From: Vicinamibacterales bacterium
Lineage (GTDB): Bacteria > Acidobacteriota > Vicinamibacteria > Vicinamibacterales > UBA8438
NCBI GenBank assembly: GCA_965263195.1
Contig: OZ253664.1
Span: 3,253,045 to 3,317,044, forward strand
Direction: 5' to 3'
Length of the DNA: 64,000 bases
A program made the translations under genes and the position numbers. The notes under the pieces were generated by a model. That model did not search any database and was not told the origin of the DNA. It saw only the letters and a list, made by a program, of their open reading frames with translations. Positions 7,516 through 45,233 of this stretch are shown here, one piece after another (within the stretch, counting starts at the first letter, position 1; every line of letters begins with the position of its first letter).

Positions 7516-8781
7516 GTGGCGGACATGCTGGGCCGCATGATGCGGTCGGTGGTCGCCAACGTCATGCTGGCGTCGGAACGCTGGCGCAACGGCGTCGTGT
7601 ACAACCCGTTCTCGGCCGCCATGGCCCGCAATCCGTACCCCATCTACGCCGAGCTGCGCGCCAGGGCGCCCGTGCACCGCAACCGCCTGCTGGACGCCTG
7701 GGTGCTCAGCCGCCACGCCGACGTGGATGCCGTGCTGCGGGACTTCCGGCGCTTCTCCAACGATCAGCGCAAGCGCGACCCCGTGCGCCGCCGCCGGAGC
7801 ACGCTGCCGCAGATTCCCTACCCGACCATCCTGTTCCTGGATCCGCCGGACCACACGCGGCTGCGTGCGCTCGTCAACAAGGCGTTCACGCCCAAGGCGG
7901 TCGCCGACCTGGAGCCGCGCATCCGCAGAATGACGCGTACGCTGCTCGACGCCGCGGCGGACCCCAACGGATTCGACCTGATGGAGACGCTGGCCAACCC
8001 GCTGCCGGTGATGGTGATCGCCGACATGCTGGGCGTGCCGGTGGAAGACCGCGCGCAGTTCCGGGAATGGTCCAACCGGCGCGCACGCATCCTCGAGCCG
8101 ACGGTGAGCCGCAGGGAATTCAGGATTGCCGAGGAGGCCAGCAAGTCGCTCGACACGTACTTCCTCTCGATCATCAAGGCCCGGCGCATCGTGCCGCGCG
8201 ACGACATCATCAGCGCGCTCATCCAGGTGGAGGAAGCAGGCGACAGGCTGACCGAGGGCGAAATGCTGGGCCTGCTGCGCCTGCTGCTGGTGGCCGGCAA
8301 CGAGACCACCACCAACCTGATCGGCAACGGCATGCTCGCGCTGCTGCGGCATCCGGAGCAGCTCGGCGCCCTGCGCGAGGACCCCGGCCGGATTCCGGCG
8401 GCGGTGGAGGAACTGCTGCGCTTCGACTCGCCCGTGCAGGCGTCGCTGCGGCTGGTGCTGGAAGACTGCGAGGTGAACGGCATTCCGCTGCGGCGCGACG
8501 ACAACGTCCTGCTGCTGAACGGCGCCGCCAACCACGACCCGGCGGTGTTCGACCATCCGGAGCGGCTCGACATCGGGCGCCGTGAGAACAACCACGTGGC
8601 GTTCGGCCGCGGCATCCACTTCTGCCTCGGCGCGCCGCTCGCGCGCCTGGAAGGTCGCATCGCCATCGAGGTGCTGCTGGAGCGCTACCCGTCGCTGCGC
8701 CTTATGTCCGACCGCCCCGCGTTTCGCAACAGCATCGTGCTGCGCGGGCTTAAGGCCCTGCCGGTCCGCGCAGCAGCGTAG
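7516..8781 (+). CDS. Cytochrome P450
   Basis: Heme-ligand loop FGRGIHFCLGAPLARLE, I-helix LLLVAGNETTTN, and an EELLRF (ExxR) motif. GTG start 4 nt after the NHL gene stop. Confidence 0.9.
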   Translation: MADMLGRMMRSVVANVMLASERWRNGVVYNPFSAAMARNPYPIYAELRARAPVHRNRLLDAWVLSRHADVDAVLRDFRRFSNDQRKRDPVRRRRSTLPQIPYPTILFLDPPDHTRLRALVNKAFTPKAVADLEPRIRRMTRTLLDAAADPNGFDLMETLANPLPVMVIADMLGVPVEDRAQFREWSNRRARILEPTVSRREFRIAEEASKSLDTYFLSIIKARRIVPRDDIISALIQVEEAGDRLTEGEMLGLLRLLLVAGNETTTNLIGNGMLALLRHPEQLGALREDPGRIPAAVEELLRFDSPVQASLRLVLEDCEVNGIPLRRDDNVLLLNGAANHDPAVFDHPERLDIGRRENNHVAFGRGIHFCLGAPLARLEGRIAIEVLLERYPSLRLMSDRPAFRNSIVLRGLKALPVRAAA

Positions 8782-8897
8782 CAACTGCGGAACACCGCCG
8801 CGATACCGTCGGCGACCGAACGGGAATCCTTGCGTGCGATCCAGTCCTGATCCATCATCCGTCTGTACGCCCGTGCGGGAACCGCGAGGAGGGGAAG

Positions 8898-9845
8898 ATG
8901 AACCACCGAATTCTCGCAGCGTTGTTTGCCGTGGCGGCGGTCGTGGTACTGATGCCGGTGAGCGTTGCAGGCCAGGCGCCGCCCACGCCGTGGGGCGACC
9001 CCGACCTGCAGGGACTCTGGACGAACTCCACGACGACGCCGTTGGAACGTCCGGACGACGTGTCGGCAGGAGATGTGCTTTCCAACGAGGAACGCGCGGC
9101 CCGGGACGCACAGGCGGACGTCACCCGCGAGGCGCGCGGCATCGAGTCGGGTACTGGCGAAACCGGCTCCTACAACAACTTCTGGGTCGAGCGGGGCGTC
9201 AGGATGGCGCGCGCGTCGCTCATCATCGACCCGCCGGACGGCAGGCTGCCGCTGACGCCAGCGGAGGCGACGCGCCGTGCGGGCCGCGAATCGTATCGGA
9301 ACCAGGCACCGGCCGGTCCCGAGGACCGCAGCGTGTTCGAGCGGTGCATCTCGCGCGGGTTGCCGGGCGCCATGATGCCCGGCTTCTACAACCACAACTA
9401 TCAGATCTTCCAGGTGCCGGGATACGTCGTGATCCTCATCGAGATGATCCACGATGCCCGCATCATTCCCCTGGACGGACGTCCGCACGTCGACCCGCAG
9501 ATTCGGCAGTGGCTCGGGGATTCCCGCGGCCGCTGGGAGGGCGACACGCTGGTGGTTGAGACCACCAATTTCACTCCGATGAACCAGCGGGCGCTTTCCG
9601 TCTTCGGCGGCAACGAGACCATGCAGCTGGTGGAACGGTTCACCCGCATCGACGAGGACAACATCGACTACCAGTACACGGTGACCGATCCGATGGAATA
9701 CACGCGACCGTGGACGGCGTCGACCCCGATGACGAATCTCGACGGCGGGCTGTACGAGTACGCCTGCCACGAGGGGAACTACGGACTGGAGAACATCCTG
9801 GCGGGCGCGCGTGCGCTGGAGCAGGCCGAGGCCGGCAGCCGCTAG
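8898..9845 (+). CDS. Secreted protein of the uncharacterised 'YEYACHEGNYG' family (paralog 3)
   Basis: Signal peptide MNHRILAALFAVAAVVVLMPVSVAGQ. Blocks PDLQGLWTN, ERCISRGLPG, EMIHDARIIPLDGRPH, GRWEGDTLVVETTNF, YEYACHEGNYGLENIL. Confidence 0.8.
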   Translation: MNHRILAALFAVAAVVVLMPVSVAGQAPPTPWGDPDLQGLWTNSTTTPLERPDDVSAGDVLSNEERAARDAQADVTREARGIESGTGETGSYNNFWVERGVRMARASLIIDPPDGRLPLTPAEATRRAGRESYRNQAPAGPEDRSVFERCISRGLPGAMMPGFYNHNYQIFQVPGYVVILIEMIHDARIIPLDGRPHVDPQIRQWLGDSRGRWEGDTLVVETTNFTPMNQRALSVFGGNETMQLVERFTRIDEDNIDYQYTVTDPMEYTRPWTASTPMTNLDGGLYEYACHEGNYGLENILAGARALEQAEAGSR

Positions 9846-9880
9846 CTGGACATCGTGCGAAGTGTGTGAGGAGGGCCGCA

Positions 9881-10312
9881 ATGATGCTGCATCCCGTACG
9901 GAGCCGCTTGCTCGCCCTGTTGGGTCTGGCAGGCTTGTTGGCCGTGGCGCTGCCCGCCGCGGCGCAGACTGAGCGGATGGAAATAGACGAGCTGAAGCAG
10001 CAGCTGGACGCCGGCGCCGAGGTGCTCATGATCGACGTCCGCGAGGACCACGAGGTCGCGAGCGGCTCGATTCCGGGCGCCATCCACATCCCGGTCGGGG
10101 AGCTCGAAGACCGGATGTCCGACATTCCCAAGGACGTGCGCCTCGTCTTCTTTTGAAACGGCGGAGGCCGGGGCTCCCGTGCTGCGGAGCTCTTCAAATC
10201 TCACGGTTACGACGCCGGCGAATTCTGCGCGCTGAACGACTGGAAGGCGAAGGGCTACGAGCTGGGCCAGACGGAGCGGCCGTCCGACGGGCCGATTAGT
10301 CCGGCGCCGTAG
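9881..10312 (+). CDS. Periplasmic single-domain rhodanese with in-frame TGA at the catalytic Cys position (candidate selenocysteine; alternatively a pseudogene)
   Basis: ATG at 9881 after GAGGAGG; signal peptide MMLHPVRSRLLALLGLAGLLAVALPAAAQ. The tracked ORF stops at TGA 10154-10156. The same frame stays open to TAG 10310-10312 and reads ..VRLVFF-[TGA]-NGGGRGSRAAELFKSHGYDAGEFCALNDWKAKGYEL. That is the rhodanese CxxGxR(S) active-site loop plus the normal C-terminal helices. Confidence 0.6.
10170..10193 (+). other. Candidate bacterial SECIS-like hairpin downstream of the in-frame TGA
   Basis: GGGGCUCC (10170-10177) pairs with GGAGCUCU (10186-10193): 8 bp including 2 G-U pairs. The 8-nt loop is CGUGCUGC. 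The loop starts 22 nt after the UGA. Confidence 0.35.
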
Positions 10313-10346
10313 CAGCAACCGCCGCCGCGGCGGCCAGCGTCGACGG

Positions 10347-12329
10347 TTACGGCAGCGCCAGGGCGATCAGCTCGCCCTCGTGGTCGTTGTCGCTGACCGC
10401 CACCACGACGTACTGCCTGCCGTCGTGCAGGTATGTCATCGGTGCGCCGGACGTCCCGGCCGGCAGCTCCGTCTGCCACAGAACGCGGCCGTTCGTCTTG
10501 TCGTAGGCGCGGAACATGCGCCCGCCGCCGTGCGGCGGCACCACCAGCAGCGACGGCGAGCCGTCTCCCAGGAACAGCAGCGTCTTCGTCAGCAGCGGCG
10601 CGGCGCGCCCCGGCGCGCCCAGCCACGGCAGCTCCAGGTCCTGCAGCGCCAGGTCGTCGCGCGGGCCGGGGCCGTTCGGCGTCATCCAGACGTGCTCGCC
10701 CGTGTTGAGATCGATGGCGGTGATGCGGCCCCACGGCGGCTTGACCAGCGGCAGCCCCCGCGGGCCGTCGATGTGCACGTTGCGGTTGCCGCGGATGTAG
10801 CGGAAGTTCGACACCGCCGGGTCCGGCTGCCGCAGCCACACCAGGATGGGCGCCGTGACCGACGGCACGTAGAGCATCTGCGTCTCGGGGTCGTACGCCG
10901 CGCCGTTCCAGTTCGAGCCGCCCACGTAGCTCGGGAGCTGCAGCGTGCCGAGCGTGCCGCCCGGCGACTCGTCGCGCACCGACGGAGGTGTGAACATCGG
11001 CCCCGAGCGGTACTGCCTGAATATCTCCAGCGCCTCGGCCCGCAGCTCCGGCGTGAAGTCGATCAGGTCGTCCTCGGTGATCCCCTGCCGGTCGAACGGC
11101 GCGGGCTTCGTCGGGAACGGCTGCGTCGGCGACAACTTCTCGCCGGGGACGTCGGACGGCGGCACGGGCCGCTCCTCGATCGGCCAGACCGGCTCGCCGG
11201 TGACGCGGTCGAAGACGTACGTGAACGCCTGCTTGCTCACCTGCGCCACCGCCTTGATCGGCCGGCCGTCGACGGTGATGTCGGCCAGGATCGGCGGCGA
11301 GGCGATGTCGTAGTCCCAGACGCCGTGGTGGATGAGCTGGTGGTACCACACCAGCCGTCCCGTGTCGCAGTCGACACAGAGCAGGCTCTCGGCAAACAGG
11401 TTGTCGCCCGGCCGGTGCCCGCCGTACCAGTTGTGGGTCGGCGTGCCGGTGGGGAGGTAGGCGTAGCCGAGCTCCTCGTCGGCGGTCATGACCGACCAGA
11501 CCGTGGCGGCGCCGGTGTACTCCCAGGAGCCGTCCTCCCAGGTCTCGTTGCCCGGCTCTCCCGGTTGCGGCACCGGGTTGAACTGCCACTTCAGCCGGCC
11601 GGTGACCGCGTCGAACCCGCGGATGTAGCCGGGCGCCTGCTCCTTGTTCAGCGGCACGTCGGGGATGGCGACGCCGACGATGACGGTGTCGCGGCAGACC
11701 AGCGGCGGGGCGTTCCACCTGAACTCCTCGAGCCGCGGGATGCCCGACCGCAGGTCGACCTTGCCGCCCTCGCCGAACTCGCCGATCGGGTTGCCCGTTT
11801 TGGCGTCGAGCGCCACCAGCCGCTCGCCGCTCACGACGAAGATGCGCTCGTCGTCGAGCCCCGGGTCGTGCCAGTAGCCGACGCCGCGCGTCGAGCCGCC
11901 GCGCGGCCGGCCGGCGCCGTCGTCCAGCGCGCGGTAGACCCACAGCGTCTCGCCGGTGGCCGGATCAATCGCCGCGGACTGGCCGAGGTTGGTGCTCATG
12001 AACAACCGCCCGCCGACCATCAGCGGCGTCCCGAGCAGCGTGTGGTTGAAGCGCAGGTCCGGGTTGTCGTCGACCAGGTCGTAGTCGACCGACCGCCAGC
12101 GCCAGGCGGTGCGCAGGTCCCCAACGTTCTGCGCGTCGATCTGGTCGAGCGGCGAGTACTTTGCCCCGCGCCCCTGTCCGCCGTACGTGCGCCATTCACC
12201 GTCGCTGCCGGATGGTTGCGCCGCGACCGGCAGGGGACCGGCAAGCAGGATCGCGAGGAGCAGCGCTGCCCAGAATGGATGCTGCGCCGGCCGAACGCGA
12301 CAGGTTGCTTGCCGTGGGCTGTGAGGCAT
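10347..12329 (-). CDS. PQQ-dependent dehydrogenase (8-bladed quinoprotein, glucose/other-substrate clade)
   Basis: ATG at 12329 (MPHSPRQ..) with signal-like FWAALLLAILLAGPLPVAAQ. Quinoprotein blocks WRTYGG..., AIDPATGETLWVY, ALDAKTGNPI, HHGVWDYD, AIDLNTGEHVW. The upstream part of the 850-aa tracked ORF is shadow. Confidence 0.85.
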   Translation of the reverse strand: MPHSPRQATCRVRPAQHPFWAALLLAILLAGPLPVAAQPSGSDGEWRTYGGQGRGAKYSPLDQIDAQNVGDLRTAWRWRSVDYDLVDDNPDLRFNHTLLGTPLMVGGRLFMSTNLGQSAAIDPATGETLWVYRALDDGAGRPRGGSTRGVGYWHDPGLDDERIFVVSGERLVALDAKTGNPIGEFGEGGKVDLRSGIPRLEEFRWNAPPLVCRDTVIVGVAIPDVPLNKEQAPGYIRGFDAVTGRLKWQFNPVPQPGEPGNETWEDGSWEYTGAATVWSVMTADEELGYAYLPTGTPTHNWYGGHRPGDNLFAESLLCVDCDTGRLVWYHQLIHHGVWDYDIASPPILADITVDGRPIKAVAQVSKQAFTYVFDRVTGEPVWPIEERPVPPSDVPGEKLSPTQPFPTKPAPFDRQGITEDDLIDFTPELRAEALEIFRQYRSGPMFTPPSVRDESPGGTLGTLQLPSYVGGSNWNGAAYDPETQMLYVPSVTAPILVWLRQPDPAVSNFRYIRGNRNVHIDGPRGLPLVKPPWGRITAIDLNTGEHVWMTPNGPGPRDDLALQDLELPWLGAPGRAAPLLTKTLLFLGDGSPSLLVVPPHGGGRMFRAYDKTNGRVLWQTELPAGTSGAPMTYLHDGRQYVVVAVSDNDHEGELIALALP

Positions 12330-15971: not shown

Positions 15972-16062
15972 GGAGAGGTACCGAAGTGGTCGTAACGGGG
16001 GCGCCTCGAAAGCGTCTTGTCGGGAAACCGGCACGTGGGTTCGAATCCCACCCTCTCCGCCA
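15972..16062 (+). tRNA. tRNA-Ser (anticodon CGA), CCA encoded
   Basis: Acceptor stem GGAGAGG/CCTCTCC. Anticodon arm GGCGC-CTCGAAA-GCGTC. Long variable arm. T-arm GTGGG-TTCGAAT-CCCAC. Discriminator G followed by CCA. Confidence 0.9.
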
Positions 16063-16591
16063 CTTGCATCCGCGCCCGAGGCCGGCAGGCCGGAGCGCGA
16101 TCGGATGAAGAATCTGATTAAGGTGGCGGGTTCGGCGTTCAGCGTCCGAACCCATCCGGCCCTGACGGCTTCCGATCAATCCAGGTGGCGTGAGCCAGAC
16201 AGCGCGGAGTGAACGCACACCGCGCCTACCTACCGGGCGCCGTCGGTCATCAGTCAAGCACTGTGGCGTAGGATGGCTATCCGTCGAGCCATCTCATAAG
16301 ATCTGCATCCACACCAACTCTCGTGCTCAACGGAAAAACATACCGCCATAAGTTACCAATGGGCGTGTAGCGACAGGTGAAACCTCCATGAAGATCTACG
16401 ACGCACTTAACAGTATCGGTAAACACGACCTCGTGCTGCCGGAGTTTCAGCGTGAATACGTATGGTCCAAAGAGCAGGCCAAGCAACTCCTTGTGTCCCT
16501 CATCAAGAGTTACCCCGTAGGCGGCATGTTGATTTGGAAAACGGACTCTCCGCCAGAACTCAAGAATATCAACGAGCTACCGGACAAACTA

Positions 16592-17425
16592 GAACCTATC
16601 TCAAAATCGTTTAAACAATATCAGCAGGGATGCGAGCTGCACAAAGCCCAGGAAGTTGTTCGGATAGTACTCCCAGCGCGTCACAATACGGCGCTGCCAT
16701 TGGAGCCAGGCAAAAAAGCGCTCGACCTTCCACCGCCGCGCGTAGCGACGTAAGGGCCGACCGTCCTGTGTCTTGCGCCGCTTCCGATTCTTGCGATGCG
16801 GCGCGATCATCTCGACACCCTCGACCTTCAGTTCAGCGTCCAAGGGGTCACTGTCGTACGCTTTGTCGCCAATCAGGTGCTCCGGCGTCGCCTCAATCAT
16901 GTAGAATTCGAAGCTCAACTGCACCAACGTGACTTCATGATGGTTCGCCGCGTGAGTGCTGACCGAGAGCGGCAGCCCCTCCCGGTCCACGATCCCCATG
17001 ATTTTCACGCCTTTTCCGCGCTTCGTCGGGCCGACCTCCGCGCCACCCCCCTTCGCCGACGAGAACATCGCGTCAATGAAACTCTCCGATTCGTCCAGGC
17101 CGCCCCGCTCGCGGAGCGTATTGGCCACATCCACCAGGATATCCCGGAGCACCTCGTGGCGGCACCACGTCTGAAAGCGGCGATGCACGGTCTTGTAGTT
17201 CGAATAACACTGCGGCAACATATGCCATTGTGCGCCCGTGTTCAGAATCCACAAGACCGCCTCCAGCACCCGACGGGTCGGAATAGGTTTGCGACCCGCT
17301 CGCCCCGGAACACGACGCTCCTCAGGAAAGTGCTCCCGAATCCGTTCCCATTGCTCGTCGGTCAACTTCACCATCACAATAAGATTAACTTAATTCGACC
17401 CCGATCTCAATTTTGAGATAGGTTC
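16592..17425. mobile_element. IS5-family insertion sequence (about 0.83 kb)
   Basis: Perfect 16-bp terminal inverted repeats GAACCTATCTCAAAAT (16592-16607 and reverse complement at 17410-17425). Flanked by TA within a CTAG target (16589-16592 and 17425-17428). Confidence 0.85.
16601..17377 (-). CDS. IS5-family DDE transposase
   Basis: The 258-aa product carries LTDEQWERI, RKPIPTRRVLEAVLWILNTGAQWHMLP, HRRFQTW, DKAYDSD and WKVERFFAWL, typical of IS5/IS427-group transposases. Confidence 0.9.
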   Translation of the reverse strand: MMVKLTDEQWERIREHFPEERRVPGRAGRKPIPTRRVLEAVLWILNTGAQWHMLPQCYSNYKTVHRRFQTWCRHEVLRDILVDVANTLRERGGLDESESFIDAMFSSAKGGGAEVGPTKRGKGVKIMGIVDREGLPLSVSTHAANHHEVTLVQLSFEFYMIEATPEHLIGDKAYDSDPLDAELKVEGVEMIAPHRKNRKRRKTQDGRPLRRYARRWKVERFFAWLQWQRRIVTRWEYYPNNFLGFVQLASLLILFKRF

Positions 17426-19624
17426 TAGGCACCGTCATGGTGCTGCTAGACGGGCAGCAACGCCTAACAACGCTGCATATGCTCCTGACCGGCAAGGTCC
17501 CTGCATTTTACAATGAAGCCGAAATAGAGAACGATCCACGAGACCTTTATTTCAATCTGGAAACAACGAATCTCCAGTATTACCAGCGATCGAAGATGAA
17601 GGACGATCCACTCTGGCAGGGTGTGGTCAAGTGCTTCGACGAAAAATCGATCAACCTGTTTGATATTGTGCAGGCGAAACAGCTTGACGTACAGGCGGCA
17701 TTCGATCTGGCGGATCAGTTGAATACGAATCTTACCACACTTCGGACCGTCCGTCATGCGGACCTACCAGAGCAGATCGTCCCGTCATCCGCGAGCCTTA
17801 CCGATGCGATTGACATTTTCGATCGAGTAAATAGCCAAGGCACGAAGCTGACGGATGCAGAGCTTGCCCTAACGCACGTAACGGCCAACTGGCCGCAGGC
17901 ACGGCGAGTCCTGAAGGCGAAGATTGGTAAGTGTGCGGAGCGCCGCTTCGACTTCACACTTACCTTTATGACCAGAGCTCTAACCACAACGGTAACCCAT
18001 CGAGCATTGTATGAGACGATTCACCCGGTCGACGGTAGCCGCCTCAAGGACGGATGGCGGCGACTGGACAAGCTTCTTGACTACCTGACAACACTCTTGC
18101 CCCAAGAGGCATTCATTCATTCAACGATGGACCTCAATACAACGAACGCGCTGATCCCACTGATCGCCTATTTGGAGGGTCAAGGAGGCAAGTTTCCGAG
18201 TGCTACGTCTGTGCGGCATGCGGTTCATTGGCTGTATGCGGCCTTGATGTGGTCACGATACACCAGCCAGACGGACCAACGGCTCGAGACGGACGTCACG
18301 CTCGTCGCTCGGGAGGCGGAACCGTGGGGCGCGCTTTGCACACATATCGTCGACCAGAGAGGAAGAATCGATGTCGAAGCGGGGGACTTCGCGGGTCGTG
18401 GCACGCCGCACCCGCTTTATCGCGCGGCGTTTATCTTGGCAAAGGCTCACGGGGCGACGGATTGGTTCAATGGCCTGCCATTGTCCCATACGCATGGCGC
18501 TGCGTACGGGTTGCACAGTCATCATATCTTCCCGCAATCACTCCTATACAAGAACGGTCTCAACCAACAGGACTACACGCACCGACAACTTGTGAACGAG
18601 ATAGCGAACCGCGCCTACTTGACGGCTGAAAGCAACATGGGACTTTCCAACAAGGAGCCGGCTGACTATCTGCCCGAAGTGGAGGAGAAATTTCCTGGCG
18701 CGTTGACAAAACAGTTCATCCCAATGGATGCACAACTGTGGAAAGTGGAACGGTACAGGGAGTTCTTGGAGGTTAGGCGTGGGCTGATTGCAAGGAAACT
18801 AAATGAATTCATGCAGAGTCTTGTCGTTGAACCGGAGACGTTACATCACAGACCGGTTGGACAGCTGATAGCACTCGGTGAGAGTTTTACCTTGGAGTTC
18901 AAGAGCAGTCTGCAGTTCGACATGGTCCGTGGCAAGCAGAACACGGCGTTGCGAGGATCCATTCTCAAGACGATCGCGGCATTTTTGAATTCAGAAGGAG
19001 GTACACTGGTGATCGGCGTAGAGGATTTGGGGACCGTGTGCGGTATTGATGCCGACCTTCACCTTGTCGGAAATTCTCGAGATAAGTTCGAGCAACTCGT
19101 TAGTTCTCTGGTAGTTCAATACCTCGGTGTCGGAATCGTACCATATTGCAGGTTTCGATTTGAGGAGGTCGAAGGCCGAACGGTGTACGTCGTTGATGTT
19201 GAGCCTTCCGCCGAGCCAGTTTTTGCAAAGTCTGAGAAAGGCTCAGTCTTTCATGTTCGCATCAGCAATACAACTCGAGCCCTTGATACTGCGGAGGCGC
19301 TACGTTATATCGAATCTCGAGGAATGGGTGCATAATGGATGGTGTCGTTCTTGAGGTGGGCGAGGCGTTCACGGGTGTGGTCGGTGGCGGGCAGCCGCCG
19401 TGTGTCCCGGGATGCGTCGTGTTAGGCAGATCATGGACTGGCCTTGCGCGGGATCCCTAGGGGGGGCAGGATGACCGGAGGGGGGCCAATACGGACTATC
19501 GTCCGAACGGCGCCGCCAGGGTGAGGCCGGCGGCTCCGGCGGCAGCCTTGAGGAGCGCCCGACGCGGGATGGAACTGCCGTATTGTCCCTTTCTTACGCG
19601 CCCGTCCATAGTCGAGACATCTCC

Positions 19625-20416
19625 TCAGTTAATTGTCGTGGTCTCAATGCCTTCGAGGCACACCCTCCACCGATCGGTCGGCCAACCATTGCTCTGCGCC
19701 GCAATGTTTCGGTCGATGTAGAACACGTACAGGTCCCGCACGCGTCCGGCCCTGGTGATCCTGCCGCACTCGGCTATCGCCTCGGCTGAAAGCGTCGCCT
19801 CGCCGTCGTATTCGTTCCACAAGGATGTGTTCTGCAACATGTCCGACACCAGGAGGAACGAATCGATGTCTTCATTTCGCTCAACGAGCGAGGCCATTGT
19901 CTCGACAATCGGCGATACGGTCGCTTCTTCCCGGTCCCGTAGTTCATCGAGTATCCCTCTGAGCCTGTTCAGGAAGGTCGCAAACTCGATTTCGACGACT
20001 CGAGGATTCTCATAGAGGAGATCGGCCATCTCCCCCTGCTTGGGTATGCACCACGAGCGGCCGGATTGGCTCGGATCCTGGTGTTCCGATTCGGGCAGTC
20101 CGTAGATGGACAGCTTTTGCAGGAACAACGTGTCTCTGGTCCACCCTTCAATTCTCTCGAACGCCCTCGCTCCGTCCTCCCCCGATATCTCGTTGGAGGT
20201 GTCAACGAGTATTACCGTGTGACCGGGTATCCGTATTCCTTCGCGGAGTTGCGCTCTTGTACCAGTCGGACAATACCCGTTGGCCTCACGCACCCGAAGT
20301 TGATCGGCGTAGTTCAAGTTGTACCCTACAACGACTACCAGCGCGCTCAGCGCCACGATGACCAGGACGAGTAGTACAACCTTGACGGGGTGGGGCGACT
20401 CGCTGCCGGAGCTCAT
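19625..20416 (-). CDS. Hypothetical N-terminally membrane-anchored protein with degenerate vWA-like motifs (operon gene 4)
   Basis: TM helix VKVVLLVLVIVALSALVVVVG, then VILVDTSNE ... SPIVETM ... FLLVSDM. The start ATG overlaps the upstream stop (ATGA 20413-20416). Confidence 0.65.
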   Translation of the reverse strand: MSSGSESPHPVKVVLLVLVIVALSALVVVVGYNLNYADQLRVREANGYCPTGTRAQLREGIRIPGHTVILVDTSNEISGEDGARAFERIEGWTRDTLFLQKLSIYGLPESEHQDPSQSGRSWCIPKQGEMADLLYENPRVVEIEFATFLNRLRGILDELRDREEATVSPIVETMASLVERNEDIDSFLLVSDMLQNTSLWNEYDGEATLSAEAIAECGRITRAGRVRDLYVFYIDRNIAAQSNGWPTDRWRVCLEGIETTTIN

Positions 20417-21822
20417 CCGGTGCCGGGGCCTCCTCTCCCGGTGGCCGGCCCGAGCACGACGCTTTCATATCGTTCCCACGAATCGGCAACCCTGGCGCAC
20501 TCCCGCTCAACGCTGTCGAAGAACTCCGCCTTCCCCGAATCCCACCACGCGTTTACGATCCTATCCGCCTCGTCCAGGATGCTCCAATCCGAAGGCGTGG
20601 CTGGAAAAGACCAGTCGACGCTGGCGCTCTCTCTGTGCACATTCAACATGCCCCGGTCAATCTTCTCGGCGTTATGCTTGTTGTGCGCTATAATGAAATC
20701 TGATTCTGCGAGATCCAGATAGGACCTTTGTTCCCAGCCCTCCTTGACATCCTCTAGAACGTTCCTCGCACGTCGCCTCTTTTTGTCGAGTTCCTCGATC
20801 CATCCTGCAACGTCGGCCCTGACACCCTTCGTGAGTTTCGTGCGGTAGCGCTCGGACAGGGTTTTGTAGTCTGCCTTGATATCCTTCCATTCGCGGTCCA
20901 GAAGCCTTTCCGCCTTTGCGCGCTTGATCCCGAATCGCACAAAGGTGAATCCCTTGTAGAATCCCACGGCACAGAGCGCCAAACCCAGGACGAGAAAGAG
21001 CAAAGACTCAAGTTCCCACGTCACCGGATTGAACGAGATGCCCGCAGCGAGTTCTCGTACCGATGCCAGGTTGATTTCGGTTGCCTGCAGCGTCTGACGT
21101 TCTCTTTCGTCGATAAGCCTTGCGAAAGCCTCTCGGTGACGTCCCACGATGAGATTCAGAGCCGTAGCGGACAGGAGTAACAGGCCGCAACCTGATAGAA
21201 GCGCCGCCCCTGAGTTCGAGTGGCGACGCACACCGGACAGCAGCAGGCCACCTCCTGCGCCGAGGGCGCCGACGTTGATGGCGGACACGAGTACTGCCGT
21301 GATGAAGGCACCAACCAGTCCGGTCGACAGGGCGCGTGTCAACAGGGTGACATTCGCCATGGCCTCGCCAACGATGCAGACCACGAGCATGGCTATGAGC
21401 TTCAACCACTGGTACCCCGTTGGTGCATCCGTATCGCTCGGCAGCGGCAACTCCGTCCGCGCATTCCGATGCTGCGAGCTACGGTGCTCGAGGACTGTGA
21501 GTTCGTTTTCGGCGTCGATCGTTACCTGCTGAGGCCCCTTTGAGCGTTTGAAATCCCAGCCGTTCAGCGGTTGGCCGATTTCCTTGGCGACGGTATCGAG
21601 GGTGCGGTTGACCAAATCCCGATAGGCCAGTCCGAGAGAGGTGAGAAGCTTGTGGTGGGCCGGCTTCCAGTCTCCGTTGGCGTGGAGGGCGATCTCGGCC
21701 GGGTCGAGGCCCAGCGACCTGGGATCGGTGGGCCAGGAGTTCTTCGAGGTCGGAACCGATGCGGCGGGTTCAGGCAACCTGCTCGACGGTTCCGAAGCAG
21801 TTTGGCTCGTGCCCTCAGTCAT
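20413..21822 (-). CDS. Hypothetical polytopic membrane protein, 469 aa (operon gene 3)
   Basis: About four hydrophobic helices (WLKLIAMLVVCIVGEAMANVTLL, GLVGAFITAVLVSAINVGALG, ALLSGCGLLLLSATALNLIVG, LLFLVLGLALCAVGFYKGF). A charged helical segment lies before the last helix, and there are long soluble termini. No family recognised. Confidence 0.65.
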   Translation of the reverse strand: MTEGTSQTASEPSSRLPEPAASVPTSKNSWPTDPRSLGLDPAEIALHANGDWKPAHHKLLTSLGLAYRDLVNRTLDTVAKEIGQPLNGWDFKRSKGPQQVTIDAENELTVLEHRSSQHRNARTELPLPSDTDAPTGYQWLKLIAMLVVCIVGEAMANVTLLTRALSTGLVGAFITAVLVSAINVGALGAGGGLLLSGVRRHSNSGAALLSGCGLLLLSATALNLIVGRHREAFARLIDERERQTLQATEINLASVRELAAGISFNPVTWELESLLFLVLGLALCAVGFYKGFTFVRFGIKRAKAERLLDREWKDIKADYKTLSERYRTKLTKGVRADVAGWIEELDKKRRRARNVLEDVKEGWEQRSYLDLAESDFIIAHNKHNAEKIDRGMLNVHRESASVDWSFPATPSDWSILDEADRIVNAWWDSGKAEFFDSVERECARVADSWERYESVVLGPATGRGGPGTG

Positions 21823-22298
21823 CAGAAACCCCGTCCTCCGGTTTGATCCTGCAATGTAGCGGCGAATCCGGAGTGTACGGGAAGTCGAAGGCGGTCGTCA
21901 ACGGAGATGGACAGCGCTGCTATTCTCCCTCGTCGCGCCTTGCCAGCGGGGCACCTCGCGACTCTCGATGCTTTCGCGGGGATTCTCCACGGGCTCCTAG
22001 CTGCTATGGCCCCGACGGTAGCGGCCAATTCTGCTTCAAGTCCTTGACGTCGGTCACGCAACGCATCCCTGTTCCGAATCAGCGACTGCCGTACGCGATC
22101 AGCTACGTGCCAGAGAGCGGTGGACGTGGAATGGATCGGTGGGCGAAGCAGGTTGGCAAACGGCGACACAACGACCCAGAGCAGACCGACTGATGCGATC
22201 CATGCAAGTGCACGAAGGCAGTTCTGCCACAGGCTGCTAACCTTGAGTCCAGAAAGGAGCCGGATGCTGACATCCGCCGTGGCATGGGAAATTGACAT
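21822..22298 (-). CDS. Possible small membrane protein (operon gene 2), uncertain
   Basis: ATG at 22298. One hydrophobic helix ALAWIASVGLLWVVVSPFANLL. Its TGA overlaps the ATG of the next gene (TGATG at 21820-21824). It overlaps the 3' end of 22237..23343 by 62 nt, so it may be an artefact. Confidence 0.35.
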   Translation of the reverse strand: MSISHATADVSIRLLSGLKVSSLWQNCLRALAWIASVGLLWVVVSPFANLLRPPIHSTSTALWHVADRVRQSLIRNRDALRDRRQGLEAELAATVGAIAARSPWRIPAKASRVARCPAGKARRGRIAALSISVDDRLRLPVHSGFAATLQDQTGGRGF

Positions 22299-23343
22299 CC
22301 CCGGTGCGAACGTTAGCAAGATGCCATTTCAGGAGGATGTACGCGGCTCGTGCATTACCATACGCACATTCGACTTCGGCGATTCTCCGGTTGGATAGAT
22401 GGCATCCAGGATGTGCCAGGTTGCGAAGGTCCCGCATCATGTCGAGGAGCGGGCGAGAGCGAAGCGTTCCCTCCGCCACTTTAAAATCTGGTAGCCATCC
22501 TGCCTCGCCAGCCACCACCGCGAGCTCATGCAAGCTCCAGCGTTTTGGGTTGGCGCGGTTCGGTCGCTCGCGGGCGGGCAAACGGTTACGCGCGTGTAGA
22601 GCGTCGTCGCGGCGGTTCAAGCAAGCAAACAAGAGGGCAGCCTCAATGGCGGAACCGATCATGACGGCCGCTGCGTGATACGCTCCGCCTTCCGCGCAGA
22701 TTTTGGCCTCAGATTCGAACTGTTTTTGGAGAACGCTCAGTCGTTCCAACTCTGGGACATCATCAAAGGCAAGGCGGCGGCCCTGCTCTCTACGCGCATC
22801 GTACGATTTCCGGTCCACGCGGTAGAGATCGGCGATGTCGTCAAAACCGTATTCACGCAGCGCCTCTTCGAACTTCCTGTCCAGAACATGCGAGTGTTGT
22901 TCGGTCAACTCCTCCCAATCATCCGGCCCTTGCCCGATGGGCCAGAACTCGTCGTCCTTGAGCCGTTCTCGCTGGCGTATGGCGTCCATGCGCGCCGCTA
23001 TGCCCGCGAGGTCGGCATTGTACAAGCCGTCTAGACAGCGCCGCTCATGAACACGTTCGATGGCGGACACCCGCAGTAGGAAGCAATAGGAGGGCGCGAA
23101 CACACTGGCGGCTTCCGCCGACCCAGCTGTGTCGATCCAGGCTCGCGTGGCGGTCTCGATCTCGGACAAGTCGAGCTTCAAGGCGTTCTGTAGTTGGTTG
23201 TCAGTGATACGGCAAAGCTCGTGCGCGTGTTCCTGAAAGTGATACCAGGCTCTGCAACTAGCAAGGATGGCATTTAGGGCTTGCGACACTGGTTCTGAGA
23301 GCCGAGTGCCACCGGTTCGACGGGTCTTTTTCGAATCATTCAT
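22237..23343 (-). CDS. Hypothetical protein with C-terminal HEPN-like helical domain (operon gene 1)
   Basis: ATG at 23343 (MNDSKKTRR..). The C-terminal region GGAYHAAAVMIGSAIEAALLFA ... LLDMMRDLRNLAHPG fits the HEPN helix pattern with an Rx4-6H-type motif. Confidence 0.6.
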   Translation of the reverse strand: MNDSKKTRRTGGTRLSEPVSQALNAILASCRAWYHFQEHAHELCRITDNQLQNALKLDLSEIETATRAWIDTAGSAEAASVFAPSYCFLLRVSAIERVHERRCLDGLYNADLAGIAARMDAIRQRERLKDDEFWPIGQGPDDWEELTEQHSHVLDRKFEEALREYGFDDIADLYRVDRKSYDARREQGRRLAFDDVPELERLSVLQKQFESEAKICAEGGAYHAAAVMIGSAIEAALLFACLNRRDDALHARNRLPARERPNRANPKRWSLHELAVVAGEAGWLPDFKVAEGTLRSRPLLDMMRDLRNLAHPGCHLSNRRIAEVECAYGNARAAYILLKWHLANVRTGDVNFPCHGGCQHPAPFWTQG

Positions 23344-23434
23344 TGTCGATGTGTCTCTCGTGGCGCGCCGAAGGTGGTCGCTGATGGCGTGGGGCCGACG
23401 GACCACATCTGCGCGGACACCCGCGTGGAGTCAA

Positions 23435-23509
23435 GACGACTACCACGCAGACTTCGCCGCGAAAATCAAAGACCAGATCGAGCAGGGCGTGGTGCCGTGG
23501 CATAGGAAA
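23435..23509 (+). pseudogene. Remnant of an ArdC-like (DUF1738 N-terminal domain) antirestriction gene
   Basis: The frame reads DDYHADFAAKIKDQIEQGVVPWHRK. This resembles the ArdC_N opening (..y..v...ii..le.G..PW.k). There is no plausible start and no continuation. Confidence 0.3.
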
Positions 23510-23535
23510 TCATCACCTGATCTTCGATCATTCGA

Positions 23536-24051
23536 TCATTCGCTCAACATTGCCCGCAGGTCCTTCATGAGTAAGAACAGGTGATAGGGATCCGTGGGGC
23601 TCGGCTCGAACTCCAAGGCTTCGTACCAGCCCCGCGCCTCGTCGTCCTTGGCATGGACGAGAAGTGCCCGAATACCGGCGATGTCGGCGGCTGCGGCGGT
23701 TCTGAGCAGTGCGTCCTTGACGAGCGCCTTGCCCAGGCCTCGTCCTTGCCAGGTCAGGTCGACCGCGAGACGGGCAAGGAGCATCACCGGGATCGGGTGC
23801 CGGGCCAGCCCCTTGCCGACCCGGAGAGGTGCGTCGGTATGTTCGACGGCTCCCGCCGCAAGGCTGTAGTAGGCGAGCACCGTCAATCCCCGGCAGGCGA
23901 CATAGGTCCGGGCGCTGTCGGCCTTCTGGTTCGCCAGCGCGAAACGCTTCAGAAAGCGATCGAGTGGCTCTTTCCCGCACTCGAAGGAATCGACATCGTG
24001 CGTTGCGTCGAGCTTCTCGACAGGAGACAACCCCTCCTGTTCCGGCGTCAC
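23536..24051 (-). CDS. GNAT-family acetyltransferase toxin (TacT/KacT-like)
   Basis: GTG at 24051 overlaps the antitoxin stop (GTGA). Motifs FECGKEPLDRFLKR, LLARLAVD..WQGRGLGKALV, ALLVHAKDDEARGWYEALEF. Confidence 0.8.
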   Translation of the reverse strand: MTPEQEGLSPVEKLDATHDVDSFECGKEPLDRFLKRFALANQKADSARTYVACRGLTVLAYYSLAAGAVEHTDAPLRVGKGLARHPIPVMLLARLAVDLTWQGRGLGKALVKDALLRTAAAADIAGIRALLVHAKDDEARGWYEALEFEPSPTDPYHLFLLMKDLRAMLSE

Positions 24052-24323
24052 TCCAGCACGCTCTTCTCCGCAAGCAATCGAGTCAAGCGGGGCTTGTGGG
24101 CGACCGGGCGGTCCAGGATGGCCTGGAAGGCCTGCCACTGGCGATCGTCGAGGCGGAAAATCCGCCGGTCGACCAGGGCGTCCTCAGCGGCGTTGATCCC
24201 TGCCTCGAGCAGAAACTCCGTGACGTTCTTGTGTGACGAGGCCGCAGCCCGCTGAAGCAACGCCTTCATGTTCGGGGTCGTCCGAACCTCAATGCGTTCC
24301 GACTTGTTTTCGGCGATGGCCAT
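24048..24323 (-). CDS. DUF1778 (TacA-like) antitoxin
   Basis: ATG at 24323 with GGAGG upstream. The 91-aa product reads MAIAENKSERIEVRTTPNMKALLQRAAASSHKNVTEFLLEAG..., the RHH-type DUF1778 pattern. Confidence 0.8.
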   Translation of the reverse strand: MAIAENKSERIEVRTTPNMKALLQRAAASSHKNVTEFLLEAGINAAEDALVDRRIFRLDDRQWQAFQAILDRPVAHKPRLTRLLAEKSVLE

Positions 24324-24549
24324 GAATGTTCCTCCGGTTGGATCCACCGACATTCTGTCATACGGATAGTGTACGGACAAGAACGCATCGACAGGCACGC
24401 TACCGTGCCTCACATCCTCCTGTGAGGGCCCGCTCGTTCCGCGTCTGGGATGAGGTGACCTCTGCCCACTGAGCCCGGGCGATGTCGGCGAGCGCGGAAG
24501 AGACTCGGCCCAAGTTCGCAAACTTGACAGTGCCGCTGGCCGACATATC

Positions 24550-25506
24550 ATGGCCGCCGTGGACGGAACGGTTGCCATTACCGATCACGGCTGGTACGAA
24601 TGCCTGCTGGCGCAGGACCGCCTCGACGAGATCAACTTCTGGACGCCGTCTGCCCACTGGGCCTTTCGAGGTGAGATCGGAGCGCCCTTCTTTTTCAAGC
24701 TGAAGGGACGCTACGACCACGCGATCTGTGGGTTCGCCTATTTCGCTCGCTACACTCGACTGCCGGACTGGCTCGCATGGGAGACCTTCGGCATCAAGAA
24801 TGGTTGCCAGACCCTCGACGCGATGCGCGACCGGATCGGTGGCATTCGAGCTCGGATCGACTACCGCGCCGCCTCGCCGTCGAATCAGATCGGCTGCATT
24901 CTCCTGTCCCAGCCGACGTTCTTTCCTCAAGACGCGTGGATTCAGGGGCCCAGGGATTGGCCACCCACGAACATGCGACCCAAACGGTACGACCTGACCG
25001 TGGGAGAAGGCCTGCGCATCTGGGAGGAATGTCGTGCCCAAGCCGCGACCGTTGGCGTGACTGCATCAATCGGTCGGCTGCCCCTGGTTCTTGAAGCGGC
25101 ACCGCGCTACGGGGCGCCCCAACTGGTTCAGCCGCGCCTCGGCCAGGGTATCTTCCGTGTGGCAGTCATGGATGCCTATTCCCGAGCCTGCGCCGTGACG
25201 CACGAGCATTCCCTGCCGGCGCTGGAAGCGTCCCATCTCCAGCCATATGCGAAGAACGGCCCACATGAAGTCCGCAACGGGGTTCTCCTCAGGGCTGACC
25301 TGCACCGACTGTTCGATCAGGGCTACGTCACCGTCACGCCAGAGTACCGAGTCGAAGTGAGTCCGCGGCTGAAGCTCGATTACGATAACGGCCACAGCTA
25401 CTACCCCCTGCACGGTTCCCGCGTGTCCCTGCCCAAAGCGTCCGAGGACGCGCCGGGCCCGGACTACCTGCGCTGGCACAACGAGCAGGTGTACCGAGCC
25501 TCCTGA
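24550..25506 (+). CDS. HNH nuclease (HNH_2-type) with N-terminal PUA/EVE-like domain; candidate modification-dependent restriction enzyme
   Basis: C-terminal CAVT....LEASHLQPY...GPHEVRNGVLLRADLHRLFDQGYVTV. N-terminal VAITDHGWYECL...EINFWTPS...PFFFKLKG..ICGFAYF. Confidence 0.7.
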   Translation: MAAVDGTVAITDHGWYECLLAQDRLDEINFWTPSAHWAFRGEIGAPFFFKLKGRYDHAICGFAYFARYTRLPDWLAWETFGIKNGCQTLDAMRDRIGGIRARIDYRAASPSNQIGCILLSQPTFFPQDAWIQGPRDWPPTNMRPKRYDLTVGEGLRIWEECRAQAATVGVTASIGRLPLVLEAAPRYGAPQLVQPRLGQGIFRVAVMDAYSRACAVTHEHSLPALEASHLQPYAKNGPHEVRNGVLLRADLHRLFDQGYVTVTPEYRVEVSPRLKLDYDNGHSYYPLHGSRVSLPKASEDAPGPDYLRWHNEQVYRAS

Positions 25507-25520
25507 TCGACAGGCCGACG

Positions 25521-26462
25521 ATGCGGTACTGGTGGGTGAATCAGAATCAGACGTATCGGGCCGAGGTGCGCGGCAGCTTCATGTGGTCGCCGAAGCGGAA
25601 CGCGAACGGTGCGCGCAATCAGTTCTACCAGAACATGCGATCCGTGGCGCCCGGTGACGTCATCTTTTCGTTCTGCGACACTCGCATCAAGGCGATCGGC
25701 GTCGTCACGGGCCCCGCCGAGACCGGCCCCAAGCCGGACTTCGGTTCAGTGGGCGTGAACTGGTCCAAGGAGGGCTGGTTTGTTCCCGTCGACTACTGTG
25801 CGTTGGAACACCGAGTTCGCCCGAAGGACCACATCGGCATCCTCCGGCCGTTTCTGCCTGCGAAGTACTCACCACTCCAATCGAACGGTGACGGCCTCCA
25901 GTCTGTGTATCTCGCCGAGCTACCTGAACCACTGGCGCAAGCGCTCATCGGTCTCATCGGCCAGGCGTTCTTGGACGCCTTCGCGACGATCGCTGACTAC
26001 CAGACGGCCTTTGATTCGTCCGAGCCAGACCAGAACATCATCGAGCGCGGCATCGTTGGTCCTACCTTCAGAGATCAAGTTGTGAAGTCGCGGCGTGGTC
26101 AAGGTGTCTACAGGGCGAATGTTCTGCTCCGGGAGTCGTCGTGCCGGGTCACTCGGGTGGACGATTCCAGACATCTCAAGGCCAGCCACATCAAGCCGTG
26201 GCGTGACGCGACCGATGCCGAACGCCTCGATGGGTCGAACGGGCTGCTGCTATCGCCGCATATCGATCACTTGTTCGACGGAGGCTACATCACGTTCTCG
26301 ACCGATCAGTCGCTCGTCATCGTTCCAGAGGTCCGAGACAGTTTGCTCGACGCCTGGGGAATCGACGCTGGCGTCCGTGTGGGCGATTTTTCCCGGGAGC
26401 AGAACGCCTACCTCGACTATCACCGCGCCAACGTGTTCAAGGACGCCCTCATGAAGACGTAA
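25521..26462 (+). CDS. Second HNH nuclease (HNH_2-type) with a different N-terminal PUA/EVE-like domain
   Basis: N-terminal MRYWWVNQNQTYRAEVRGSFMWSPK...APGDVIFSF..TRIKAIGVV. C-terminal CRVT....LKASHIKPW......NGLLLSPHIDHLFDGGYITF. Starts 14 nt after the previous gene. Confidence 0.7.
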   Translation: MRYWWVNQNQTYRAEVRGSFMWSPKRNANGARNQFYQNMRSVAPGDVIFSFCDTRIKAIGVVTGPAETGPKPDFGSVGVNWSKEGWFVPVDYCALEHRVRPKDHIGILRPFLPAKYSPLQSNGDGLQSVYLAELPEPLAQALIGLIGQAFLDAFATIADYQTAFDSSEPDQNIIERGIVGPTFRDQVVKSRRGQGVYRANVLLRESSCRVTRVDDSRHLKASHIKPWRDATDAERLDGSNGLLLSPHIDHLFDGGYITFSTDQSLVIVPEVRDSLLDAWGIDAGVRVGDFSREQNAYLDYHRANVFKDALMKT

Positions 26463-45057: not shown

Positions 45058-45233
45058 CTAGGAGCCCGTGGTGAAACCCCGCGTCGCACAGAGAGCGGCC
45101 GTATCAATGCCGCGTCCGGCCAGTACAAGGCGTGAGGAGCGAGCATATTCCCAATATGTGAGCGACGAGCAACGCAGCTCAGGCGGGATGCATCGCGGTC
45201 GCATGCAGCGGGGGTTTCACCACGGGCTCCTAG
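45058..45233. mobile_element. MITE-like non-coding element (176 bp) with perfect 23-bp terminal inverted repeats
   Basis: CTAGGAGCCCGTGGTGAAACCCC (45058-45080) is the exact reverse complement of 45211-45233. The arms are 130 bp apart. The ends sit in CTAG, like the IS5 element at 16.6 kb. Confidence 0.5.

Follow-up and report, generated by a model that had tools for sequence, protein, structure and literature searches.

The stretch of DNA analysed here comprises 64,000 nucleotides (nt) from a Vicinamibacterales bacterium (contig OZ253664.1, positions 3,253,045 to 3,317,044) and is called the window in the following. On its minus strand, four open reading frames (ORFs) run head-to-tail between positions 19625 and 23343, which an earlier note on this sequence had proposed as a candidate defence module of a HEPN-like protein and three membrane proteins. 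ORF1 (22237..23343) starts with an ATG, its longest form opening at a GTG at 23406, and encodes the protein p1 of 368 amino acids. ORF2 (21822..22298) also starts with an ATG, or with a TTG at 22319 in its longest form. ORF3 (20413..21822) and ORF4 (19625..20416) encode p3 and p4 of 469 and 263 amino acids, respectively. ORF1 and ORF2 overlap by 62 nt, ORF2 and ORF3 meet in TGATG (21820-21824) and ORF3 and ORF4 in ATGA (20413-20416). The reading frames, their junctions and the peptide motifs quoted in the earlier note are all present as described there.

Here, the window was compared with fetched loci and contigs that carry homologues of these ORFs, which are referred to by L-numbers (L001, L018 and so on). 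This comparison makes it likely that the region is not one system. Instead, it would be a mosaic junction in a variable tRNA-Ser genomic island, at which two units and a probably non-coding spacer became neighbours. The first unit would be p1, a stand-alone protein of the HEPN superfamily. The second unit would be p3-p4, two genes in ~2.3 kb that form an autonomous cassette and bring along a conserved promoter of their own. The ~415 nt which follow p1 and contain ORF2 include debris of mobile elements and are probably non-coding.

Independence of p1 and the p3-p4 pair

A tblastn search with p1-p4 in all fetched loci revealed relatives of p1 in 18 loci and relatives of p3 in 18 loci, and the overlap between both sets is zero. 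Every p3 locus also holds p4. None of the 17 p1 loci obtained from a scan of species genomes encodes a relative of ORF2, p3 or p4. The same picture is seen close to the window, since p3-p4 is missing near the closest p1 relative outside the lineage (74%, L113) and p1 is missing from L114, the locus of an 81%-identical p3 relative.

The pairing of p3 with p4 is, on the other hand, strict. Both genes are adjacent in L018-L022, L027-L029, L031, L032, L114, L116 and L118, where the upstream partners were confirmed by a p3 hidden Markov model despite shortened or extended N-termini. A metagenome scan yielded 276 loci with p4 relatives, and the pairing was counted in those 50 of the kept loci whose sequence extends 1.3 kb or more upstream of p4. 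An ORF of 304-485 amino acids on the same strand ends between -60 and +400 nt from p4 in 49 of these loci, and 27 of the 49 pairs overlap by 4 or 1 nt. A search of 1.84 billion representatives with the p3 profile recovered 461 relatives at E<=1e-3, and the close relatives of p3 form 32 clusters. The translational coupling which the earlier note had assumed for the whole row is conserved at the ORF3/ORF4 junction only.

The 62-nt overlap of ORF1 with ORF2 hinges on a C-terminal tail of p1 of ~20 residues, which the homologues lack. This extension, VRTGDVNFPCHGGCQHPAPFWTQG (22237-22308), is peculiar to the lineage of the window and missing in all homologues. A hairpin with a T-rich tail (22276-22251) sits within it, which suggests that the ancestral stop codon of p1 has been lost.

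ORF2, taken in the earlier note as the second gene of the module, does not rise above chance. It most probably is not a gene, because it was left uncalled in the near-identical contigs L023 and L024, where gene callers kept the 415-nt gap between p1 and p3 empty, because its G+C content by codon position is flat (0.64/0.57/0.59), because tblastn found no relative of it in any fetched locus and because a repeat resembling the end of a miniature inverted-repeat transposable element (MITE) lies inside. ORFs 1, 3 and 4 display the usual pattern, in which codon position 2 is low and position 3 high in G+C (~0.6/0.45/0.7). Furthermore, chance ORFs are abundant in this DNA, with 125 ORFs of at least 60 amino acids in a 20-kb stretch. 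The last ~80 nt of ORF2 are the conserved leader of p3 with its promoter-like site, and its bulk is a lineage-specific spacer (21906..22236), which is probably non-coding; an Rfam scan of 19000-24000 found no RNA family in the spacer between p1 and p3. The solo MITE-like terminal repeat CTAGGAGCCCGTGGAGAATCCCC is located at 21978..22000 on the minus strand, and this 23-nt repeat occurs in three copies in the window vs. zero expected. The other two copies form an inverted pair (45058-45080 and 45211-45233) and bound a MITE-like element of ~176 bp (45058-45233) as 23-nt inverted repeats, CTAGGAGCCCGTGGTGAAACCCC. A degraded gene was considered as the origin of ORF2 and rejected: when the spacer was compared with all loci by blastn and tblastx, nothing but the p3 leader and the MITE repeat was recovered, apart from weak matches in tblastx (E 0.002-0.003) to an upstream region of L018-L021, which were judged spurious.

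The conserved 5' region of p3-p4 (21823..21905, minus strand) contains a promoter resembling those of sigma-70, TTGACG-18 nt-TACACT (21901-21872), as well as a ribosome-binding site with the sequence GGAGGA. The ~80 nt upstream of p3 are 76% identical to those of L018-L021, whose upstream genes differ, and 78% identical over 46 nt to L033. Both promoter hexamers are conserved in the window, L018 and L033. Because these ~80 nt are conserved in loci with differing upstream genes, the pair appears to carry its own promoter; the promoter scan taken alone was not above chance.

The pair occupies different sites in related genomes, which points to a cassette. In L018 it lies between ilvC and the gene of the Y-family polymerase dinB, 6.5 kb from an intact junction of dnaE and a DUF3224 gene (L018, 1-517). 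In L118 (4236-10709) the cassette is located between dnaE and the DUF3224 gene. In L027 (4981-8599) it is flanked by moaC fragments of 62 and 174 amino acids and looks as if it had been inserted into or beside moaC; the p3 of this locus is short (351 amino acids) and lacks the N-terminal domain. From the comparison of L118 with L018, the cassette itself contains no recombinase.

The island in which all this is embedded has a G+C content of 0.55-0.64 vs. ~0.70 around it and begins directly after a tRNA-Ser(cga) gene (15972..16062, plus strand), which marks the edge of the low-G+C DNA carrying p1, ORF2, p3 and p4. A search for the island boundary found no direct repeat of at least 16 nt of the tRNA-Ser end elsewhere in the 64-kb window. 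According to Pfam, the flanks contain a GmrSD gene (16388-19335) that is interrupted by an IS5-like transposase, the antitoxin TacA with a GNAT toxin (23536-24578), a pair of HNH_2 genes (24550-26462), an AbiEi-like gene and a DDE transposase. The GmrSD type IV restriction gene is apparently divided into an N-terminal fragment (16388-16753) and the remainder (17437-19335), and this larger part ends in a C-terminal Schlafen/AlbA_2 domain. The IS5-family transposase between both parts (16601-17377) is encoded on the opposite strand. The earlier note had recognized this setting well: the low G+C content, the flanks of type IV restriction, toxin-antitoxin (TA) pair and HNH genes, and the overall character of an island rich in defence and TA genes are all borne out. 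Also its statement that no named defence family can be assigned holds, as the four products have no usable match in Pfam, NCBIfam, PADLOC (PADLOC-DB 2.0) or PHROG. A match of p1 to LmuB in PADLOC (E 0.008) is a fragment over 53 residues only and spurious; the products of ORF2, ORF3 and ORF4 have no PADLOC match.

In the earlier note, all four ORFs were proposed to form one new abortive-infection operon, in which a HEPN sensor or effector would work together with three membrane proteins. That the ORFs lie head-to-tail on one strand and that their stop and start codons overlap or abut would fit to this, as would the location in a defence- and TA-rich island and the adjacency of p1, p3 and p4 in the closest contigs L023 and L024. 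However, both contigs are ~99% identical to the window, and therefore the shared order is not independent evidence; the other island genes in them differ from those of the window. Outside this lineage the gene order was not found, an outcome which the earlier note itself had named as speaking against its proposal. Moreover, ORF2 shows no sign of being a gene, p3-p4 has its own conserved promoter and the p1 family has a different, consistent partner, a Type IIG enzyme. The comparative data thus largely refute the four-ORF operon, which we consider very improbable, and they lend no support to the design of a nuclease sensor or effector combined with membrane proteins. Some points still weigh against the reading as two units. 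The three genes do stay together in L023 and L024, the hairpin after p1 and the promoter match are each no better than chance, and as far as the sequence tells, p1 may be co-transcribed with p3-p4 in this strain.

The HEPN-like protein p1 and the Type IIG partner of its family

p1 is a soluble all-helical protein, for which an AlphaFold2 (AF2) model with a mean predicted local distance difference test (pLDDT) score of 84 was obtained from a 32-sequence alignment. Its family comprises 66 homologue clusters and has no Pfam domain. The N-terminal helical domain (residues 17-192; 22768..23295, minus strand) is conserved in the family and has no fold or profile match. The C-terminal domain (residues 198-345; 22309..22752, minus strand) appears HEPN-like from structural comparison with Foldseek. 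Here, the matches of top probability are all HEPN structures, namely 2hsb (probability 0.98, TMt 0.68) and 1wol (0.93, 0.60) as well as 2q00, 1ufb, 4nqf and Csm6. Elsewhere, the C-terminal domain occurs in stand-alone proteins of 170-220 amino acids or is fused to other N-termini. In L015 and L017 such N-termini take the place of the N-terminal domain, which L011-L013 and L016 lack.

Within the C-terminal domain, the motif R307-N308-L-A-H311 (22411..22425, minus strand) is the predicted RNase active site, based on its invariance and its position in the model. Neither the 32 close nor the 18 wide-range sequences show any variation at R307, N308 and H311, and P312 is nearly invariant; in the wide-range set only the alanine, R307, N308 and H311 are invariant. 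In the AF2 model, the RNxxH motif is placed where helix 296-308 ends and the next loop starts, and the HEPN active site lies at a helix end and loop in the same manner (PMC3710099). E234 in the second helix (222-243) is invariant in the 32 sequences and nearly so in the wide alignment. p1 would therein act as a metal-independent RNase via R307, N308 and H311, with E234 contributed by the neighboring helix.

Several observations speak against this assignment. All Foldseek E-values for p1 are at least 0.4, because the whole two-domain model served as query. The spacing between R307 and H311 is 3 and thereby below the canonical 4-6, and an Rx6H reading needs R304, which fits only in the close clade and is unconserved across the wider family. 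Matches to DUF4145, a family of the HEPN clan, are sub-threshold and limited to six of the 18 members (at best E 0.0016 with 18.9 bits vs. a cut-off of 23.1); no other family recurs among the members. A Pfam scan gave no match of the p1 of the window to any HEPN-clan profile. Searches of PDB sequences with profiles of p1 and of its C-terminal domain resulted in chance matches only, which across these and the corresponding p3 and p4 searches were ferritin, FtsZ and spike HR1, and Foldseek against viral structures found nothing meaningful. The earlier note had read an Rx4-6H motif of HEPN type in this protein. A helical HEPN-like C-terminal domain with an invariant RNxxHP is indeed present, and the spacing lies outside that pattern; because of the latter, we call the domain HEPN-like with moderate confidence only.

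Of the known groups, a branch similar to DUF4145 (PF13643) would fit best. Shared features are the all-helical domain of ~150 residues with HEPN proteins as best structural matches, the R, polar N and H where helix 3 ends, and the conserved Glu in helix 2. Furthermore, the domain occurs alone or on varied N-termini and the family adjoins a restriction-modification (R-M) enzyme; operons of DUF4145 with R-M genes have been listed (Anantharaman et al., 2013; PMC3710099). In contrast, the p1 family stays below the threshold of every curated HEPN model and differs in the R-to-H spacing, the N-terminal helical domain of 175 residues is specific to the p1 family, and the R-M partner is missing beside the p1 of the window.

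This partner became apparent in the scan of 185,579 species genomes for the p1 family, from which the 17 loci originate. In eight of the nine full-length genome loci (L001-L005, L007-L009) the p1 homologue adjoins a Type IIG restriction-methyltransferase of ~1130 amino acids with N6_Mtase and Type_ISP_C domains (PADLOC REase_MTase_IIG, E = 0). These loci span Latescibacterota, Gemmatimonadota and Acidobacteriota, and in several of them both genes run in the same direction, 8-110 nt apart, and would form an operon. An example of such a cassette is L009:6610-11017. No description of a Type IIG and HEPN pairing was found in the literature. Stand-alone HEPN genes have been described as auxiliary or back-up effectors beside methyltransferase-based BREX-type loci (PMC12839542), and beside the Type IIG enzyme the p1 family would probably act as an auxiliary or back-up toxic effector. 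A defence role for p1 is plausible.

The p1 of the window is an orphan copy as judged from the sequence, because no Type IIG gene was found in the 64 kb by tblastn with two such enzymes. It might even be a decaying toxin gene, which forms one part of a tentative reading of the whole region that is taken up below for p3-p4. The missing partner and the aberrant 3' extension would agree with decay. However, p1 is 99-100% conserved across four contigs and every invariant residue is kept. A scan of IMG/VR found no p1 relatives. In L113 (755-4506), the nearest relative outside the lineage is accompanied by a Metallophos protein (480 amino acids) and a HATPase_c_3 protein (770 amino acids), whose weak PADLOC matches to PDC-S60 and TmtA may indicate another defence pair.

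The membrane proteins p3 and p4

The earlier note had described product 3 as about four hydrophobic helices with soluble ends, and p3 is a polytopic membrane protein of this kind. Hydropathy and charge distribution fit an N-in/C-in arrangement with four transmembrane helices, by which p3 is predicted to be a polytopic inner-membrane protein. The membrane core (residues 141-291; 20950..21402, minus strand) contains the four helices with conserved polar residues. It is preceded by a variable N-terminal domain and followed by a C-terminal helical domain of ~170 residues, both predicted to be cytoplasmic. All 43 sequences compared, which come from both clades, share E153, N157, N183, N223 and R230 (GRHRE motif) as well as several glycines. 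A profile search of PDB sequences with p3 gave no match, and ten distant p3 relatives contain no Pfam domain. A relationship to known motor-type proteins was rejected: hhalign yielded probabilities of 0.5% for ZorA2 and 0.1% for E. coli TolQ, and for MotA/ExbB there was neither a match to the MotA_ExbB Pfam family nor a PADLOC match.

p4 is a single-pass protein with a transmembrane helix at residues ~11-32 and a domain with the fold of von Willebrand factor A (vWA) at residues ~60-263. Its AF2 model (pLDDT 89.6, pTM 0.83) displays the N-terminal helix followed by an alpha/beta domain. Foldseek revealed 42 PDB matches at E<=1e-3 with a probability of ~1.0, of which the top ~30 are all of vWA type, including 4jdu (E 1.5e-5), ITIH1, RGLG1, Sec23/24, vWF A3, TRAP, CMG2 and factor B; the target-normalized TM-scores to vWA structures are 0.4-0.55. 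On sequence level, neither the vWA profiles of Pfam and NCBIfam (no match at E<=1) nor a profile search of PDB sequences with the p4 alignment recovered a vWA protein.

Within this fold, the metal-ion-dependent adhesion site (MIDAS) is incomplete and modified yet strongly conserved. Universal residues are D72 and D192, and S/T74 is conserved as well; the residue at the third Ser position differs between members (E/R/K/T) and the MIDAS Thr is replaced by the universal motif S168-P-x-x-E172. The view of the earlier note, an N-terminally anchored vWA-like protein with a degenerate MIDAS, is thus supported by the model. C49 and C123 are universal, and the close clade also conserves C217 and C253, which distant members have lost jointly. 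Because this cysteine pattern comes along with a net positive N-terminal tail, disulfides are suggested and the vWA domain would lie in the periplasm. In all 34 aligned sequences the transmembrane segment is free of acidic residues; a TolR-like stator was rejected for p4 on this missing Asp and on an hhalign probability of 1% against TolR.

Taken together, the most likely working model is that p4 would bind an envelope or periplasmic ligand in a metal-dependent manner and that p3 would couple this binding to an ion flux or a cytoplasmic signal. Here, the disulfide-stabilized vWA domain would face the periplasm and expose a modified MIDAS pocket of D72, S/T74, S168, E172 and D192. The invariant Glu/Asn/Asn/Asn/Arg network in the helices of p3 might form an ion or proton path and would then be more than an anchor. 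It weighs against this model that the ion path is argued solely from conservation and the periplasmic location of p4 from the cysteine pattern and a weak charge bias.

Function of the pair and relation to known systems

For the p3-p4 pair, a role as two-gene module against phages or plasmids has to be considered, in which the vWA domain senses a phage component or envelope damage and p3 depolarizes the cell, resulting in abortive infection. Across phyla the close clade has a patchy distribution, it moves as a cassette, and the invariant polar network in the membrane would fit a channel. Furthermore, defence or mobile genes are neighbors of the pair not only in the island of the window. L028 harbors a complete type II Zorya system (ZorA2, ZorB2, ZorE2; PADLOC E 1e-88 to 1e-157) at 7935-11150, the distant locus L029 the HinfI R-M system and Bro-N, L032 a TIR protein, an integrase, IS110 and Mob genes, L022 TA genes and an integrase, and L114 transposases. 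The Zorya system of L028 is convergent to p3-p4 and directly beside it, and the p3 of this locus has an extended N-terminus of 616 amino acids.

Against a defence module, there is no PADLOC match, the pair contains no nuclease, NTPase or NADase domain, and only ~4-6 of the 11 distinct close and distant contexts have defence genes within ~5 kb. L027, L116 and L118 show ordinary housekeeping contexts. In L116 (878-2614), six tandem ORFs of nearly equal size (93 amino acids) follow a Big_12 protein of 1133 amino acids, ~5 kb upstream of p3-p4. In addition, a large marine clade (L038-L051, L058, L062, L065, L088, L091) shares 30-35% identity with the proteins of the window and contains pairs of a p3-like protein of ~340-400 and a p4-like protein of 262-270 amino acids on contigs of up to 2 Mb. 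Its synteny is conserved and of housekeeping type: genes for GST and an amidase lie upstream, and those for RsmB, a thiolase, PEP carboxylase, ThiF and an O-methyltransferase are near. Because this clade and L027, L116 and L118 sit in housekeeping contexts, guilt by association is not valid for the whole family, and the marine clade weakens a defence role of the pair. A phage origin is unsupported as well, since the scans of IMG/VR for p4 relatives and for p1 relatives found none. In the literature, no description of an anti-phage system of a vWA and a membrane protein matching p3-p4 was found. A defence role for the pair therefore appears unlikely to us.

An envelope maintenance or transport-coupled module without immune function, core in some marine lineages and carried passively into islands, is a serious but still tentative candidate; the decaying orphan p1 mentioned above belongs to this reading. 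It agrees with the housekeeping synteny across marine relatives diverged by >30%, with the likewise housekeeping loci of the close clade (L027, L116, L118) and with the proposal that periplasmic vWA proteins with inner-membrane partners are force transducers of the envelope (PMC12204202). However, the mobility of the close clade and its frequent location in islands would need an explanation, and p3 lacks similarity to TolQ or ZorA.

The proposal just mentioned concerns membrane-tethered periplasmic vWA proteins which form pairs with inner-membrane proteins similar to TolQ (PMC12204202, Mol Biol Evol 2025). In common with p3-p4 are a polytopic inner-membrane gene and a single-pass gene with a C-terminal vWA domain, predicted to be periplasmic, and the tight co-occurrence. 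Nevertheless, p3-p4 does not belong to these pairs, because p3 is not TolQ-like (hhalign <1%, no MotA_ExbB match in Pfam) and the transmembrane helix of p4 has no conserved Asp. The latter also lacks the SHLS/His motif, the conserved membrane acid of p3-p4 (E153) is found on the polytopic partner and there is one vWA gene instead of a heterologous pair. The resemblance is architectural only.

Two further systems come close in single aspects. BatA/BatB of the Bacteroides aerotolerance operon (4jdu) is the best structural match of p4, and both are bacterial membrane-anchored vWA proteins. In contrast to them, p4 shares an identity of 14%, has no Pfam VWA match, lacks the third Ser of the MIDAS and carries the S168/E172 motif in place of the Thr; furthermore, neither MoxR ATPase nor DUF58 or TPR genes are among the called genes of the p3-p4 loci examined. 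The Zorya proteins ZorA and ZorB resemble the pair in that a polytopic protein with a long cytoplasmic helical tail is combined with a single-pass partner with a periplasmic domain, and in L028 both systems are direct neighbors. There is no sequence relationship, and p3-p4 has neither a peptidoglycan-binding domain nor an associated nuclease or helicase effector.

A bolder reading would join these aspects. Here, p3-p4 would be an unrecognized class of ion-coupled inner-membrane machines, a non-homologous analogue of the 5:2 stators, with E153 of the polytopic subunit as proton-binding acid and the periplasmic MIDAS-type vWA domain as output or sensor. The mobile clade including the copy of the window would have taken on, by recruitment, the role of an envelope-level anti-phage or abortive-infection module, and the p1 family would be a new HEPN accessory effector of Type IIG enzymes. 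In this combination we regard it as distinctly unlikely.

The p3-p4 pair and the association of Type IIG enzymes with a HEPN-like protein are modestly novel. The example of this island calls for caution, as tight ORF junctions in defence islands can come from juxtaposed cargo together with spurious ORFs in G+C-rich DNA. With p3-p4, a widespread two-gene membrane module has been found outside all curated libraries searched, represented by at least 461 p3 representatives at 50% identity and by 276 metagenome loci for p4. Its universal residues, E153, N157, N183, N223 and R230 of p3 as well as D72, S168, E172 and D192 of p4, are open to direct mutational tests. The HEPN-like family as consistent neighbor of Type IIG enzymes in several phyla suggests that these single-polypeptide R-M enzymes may possess a previously unreported RNase back-up.

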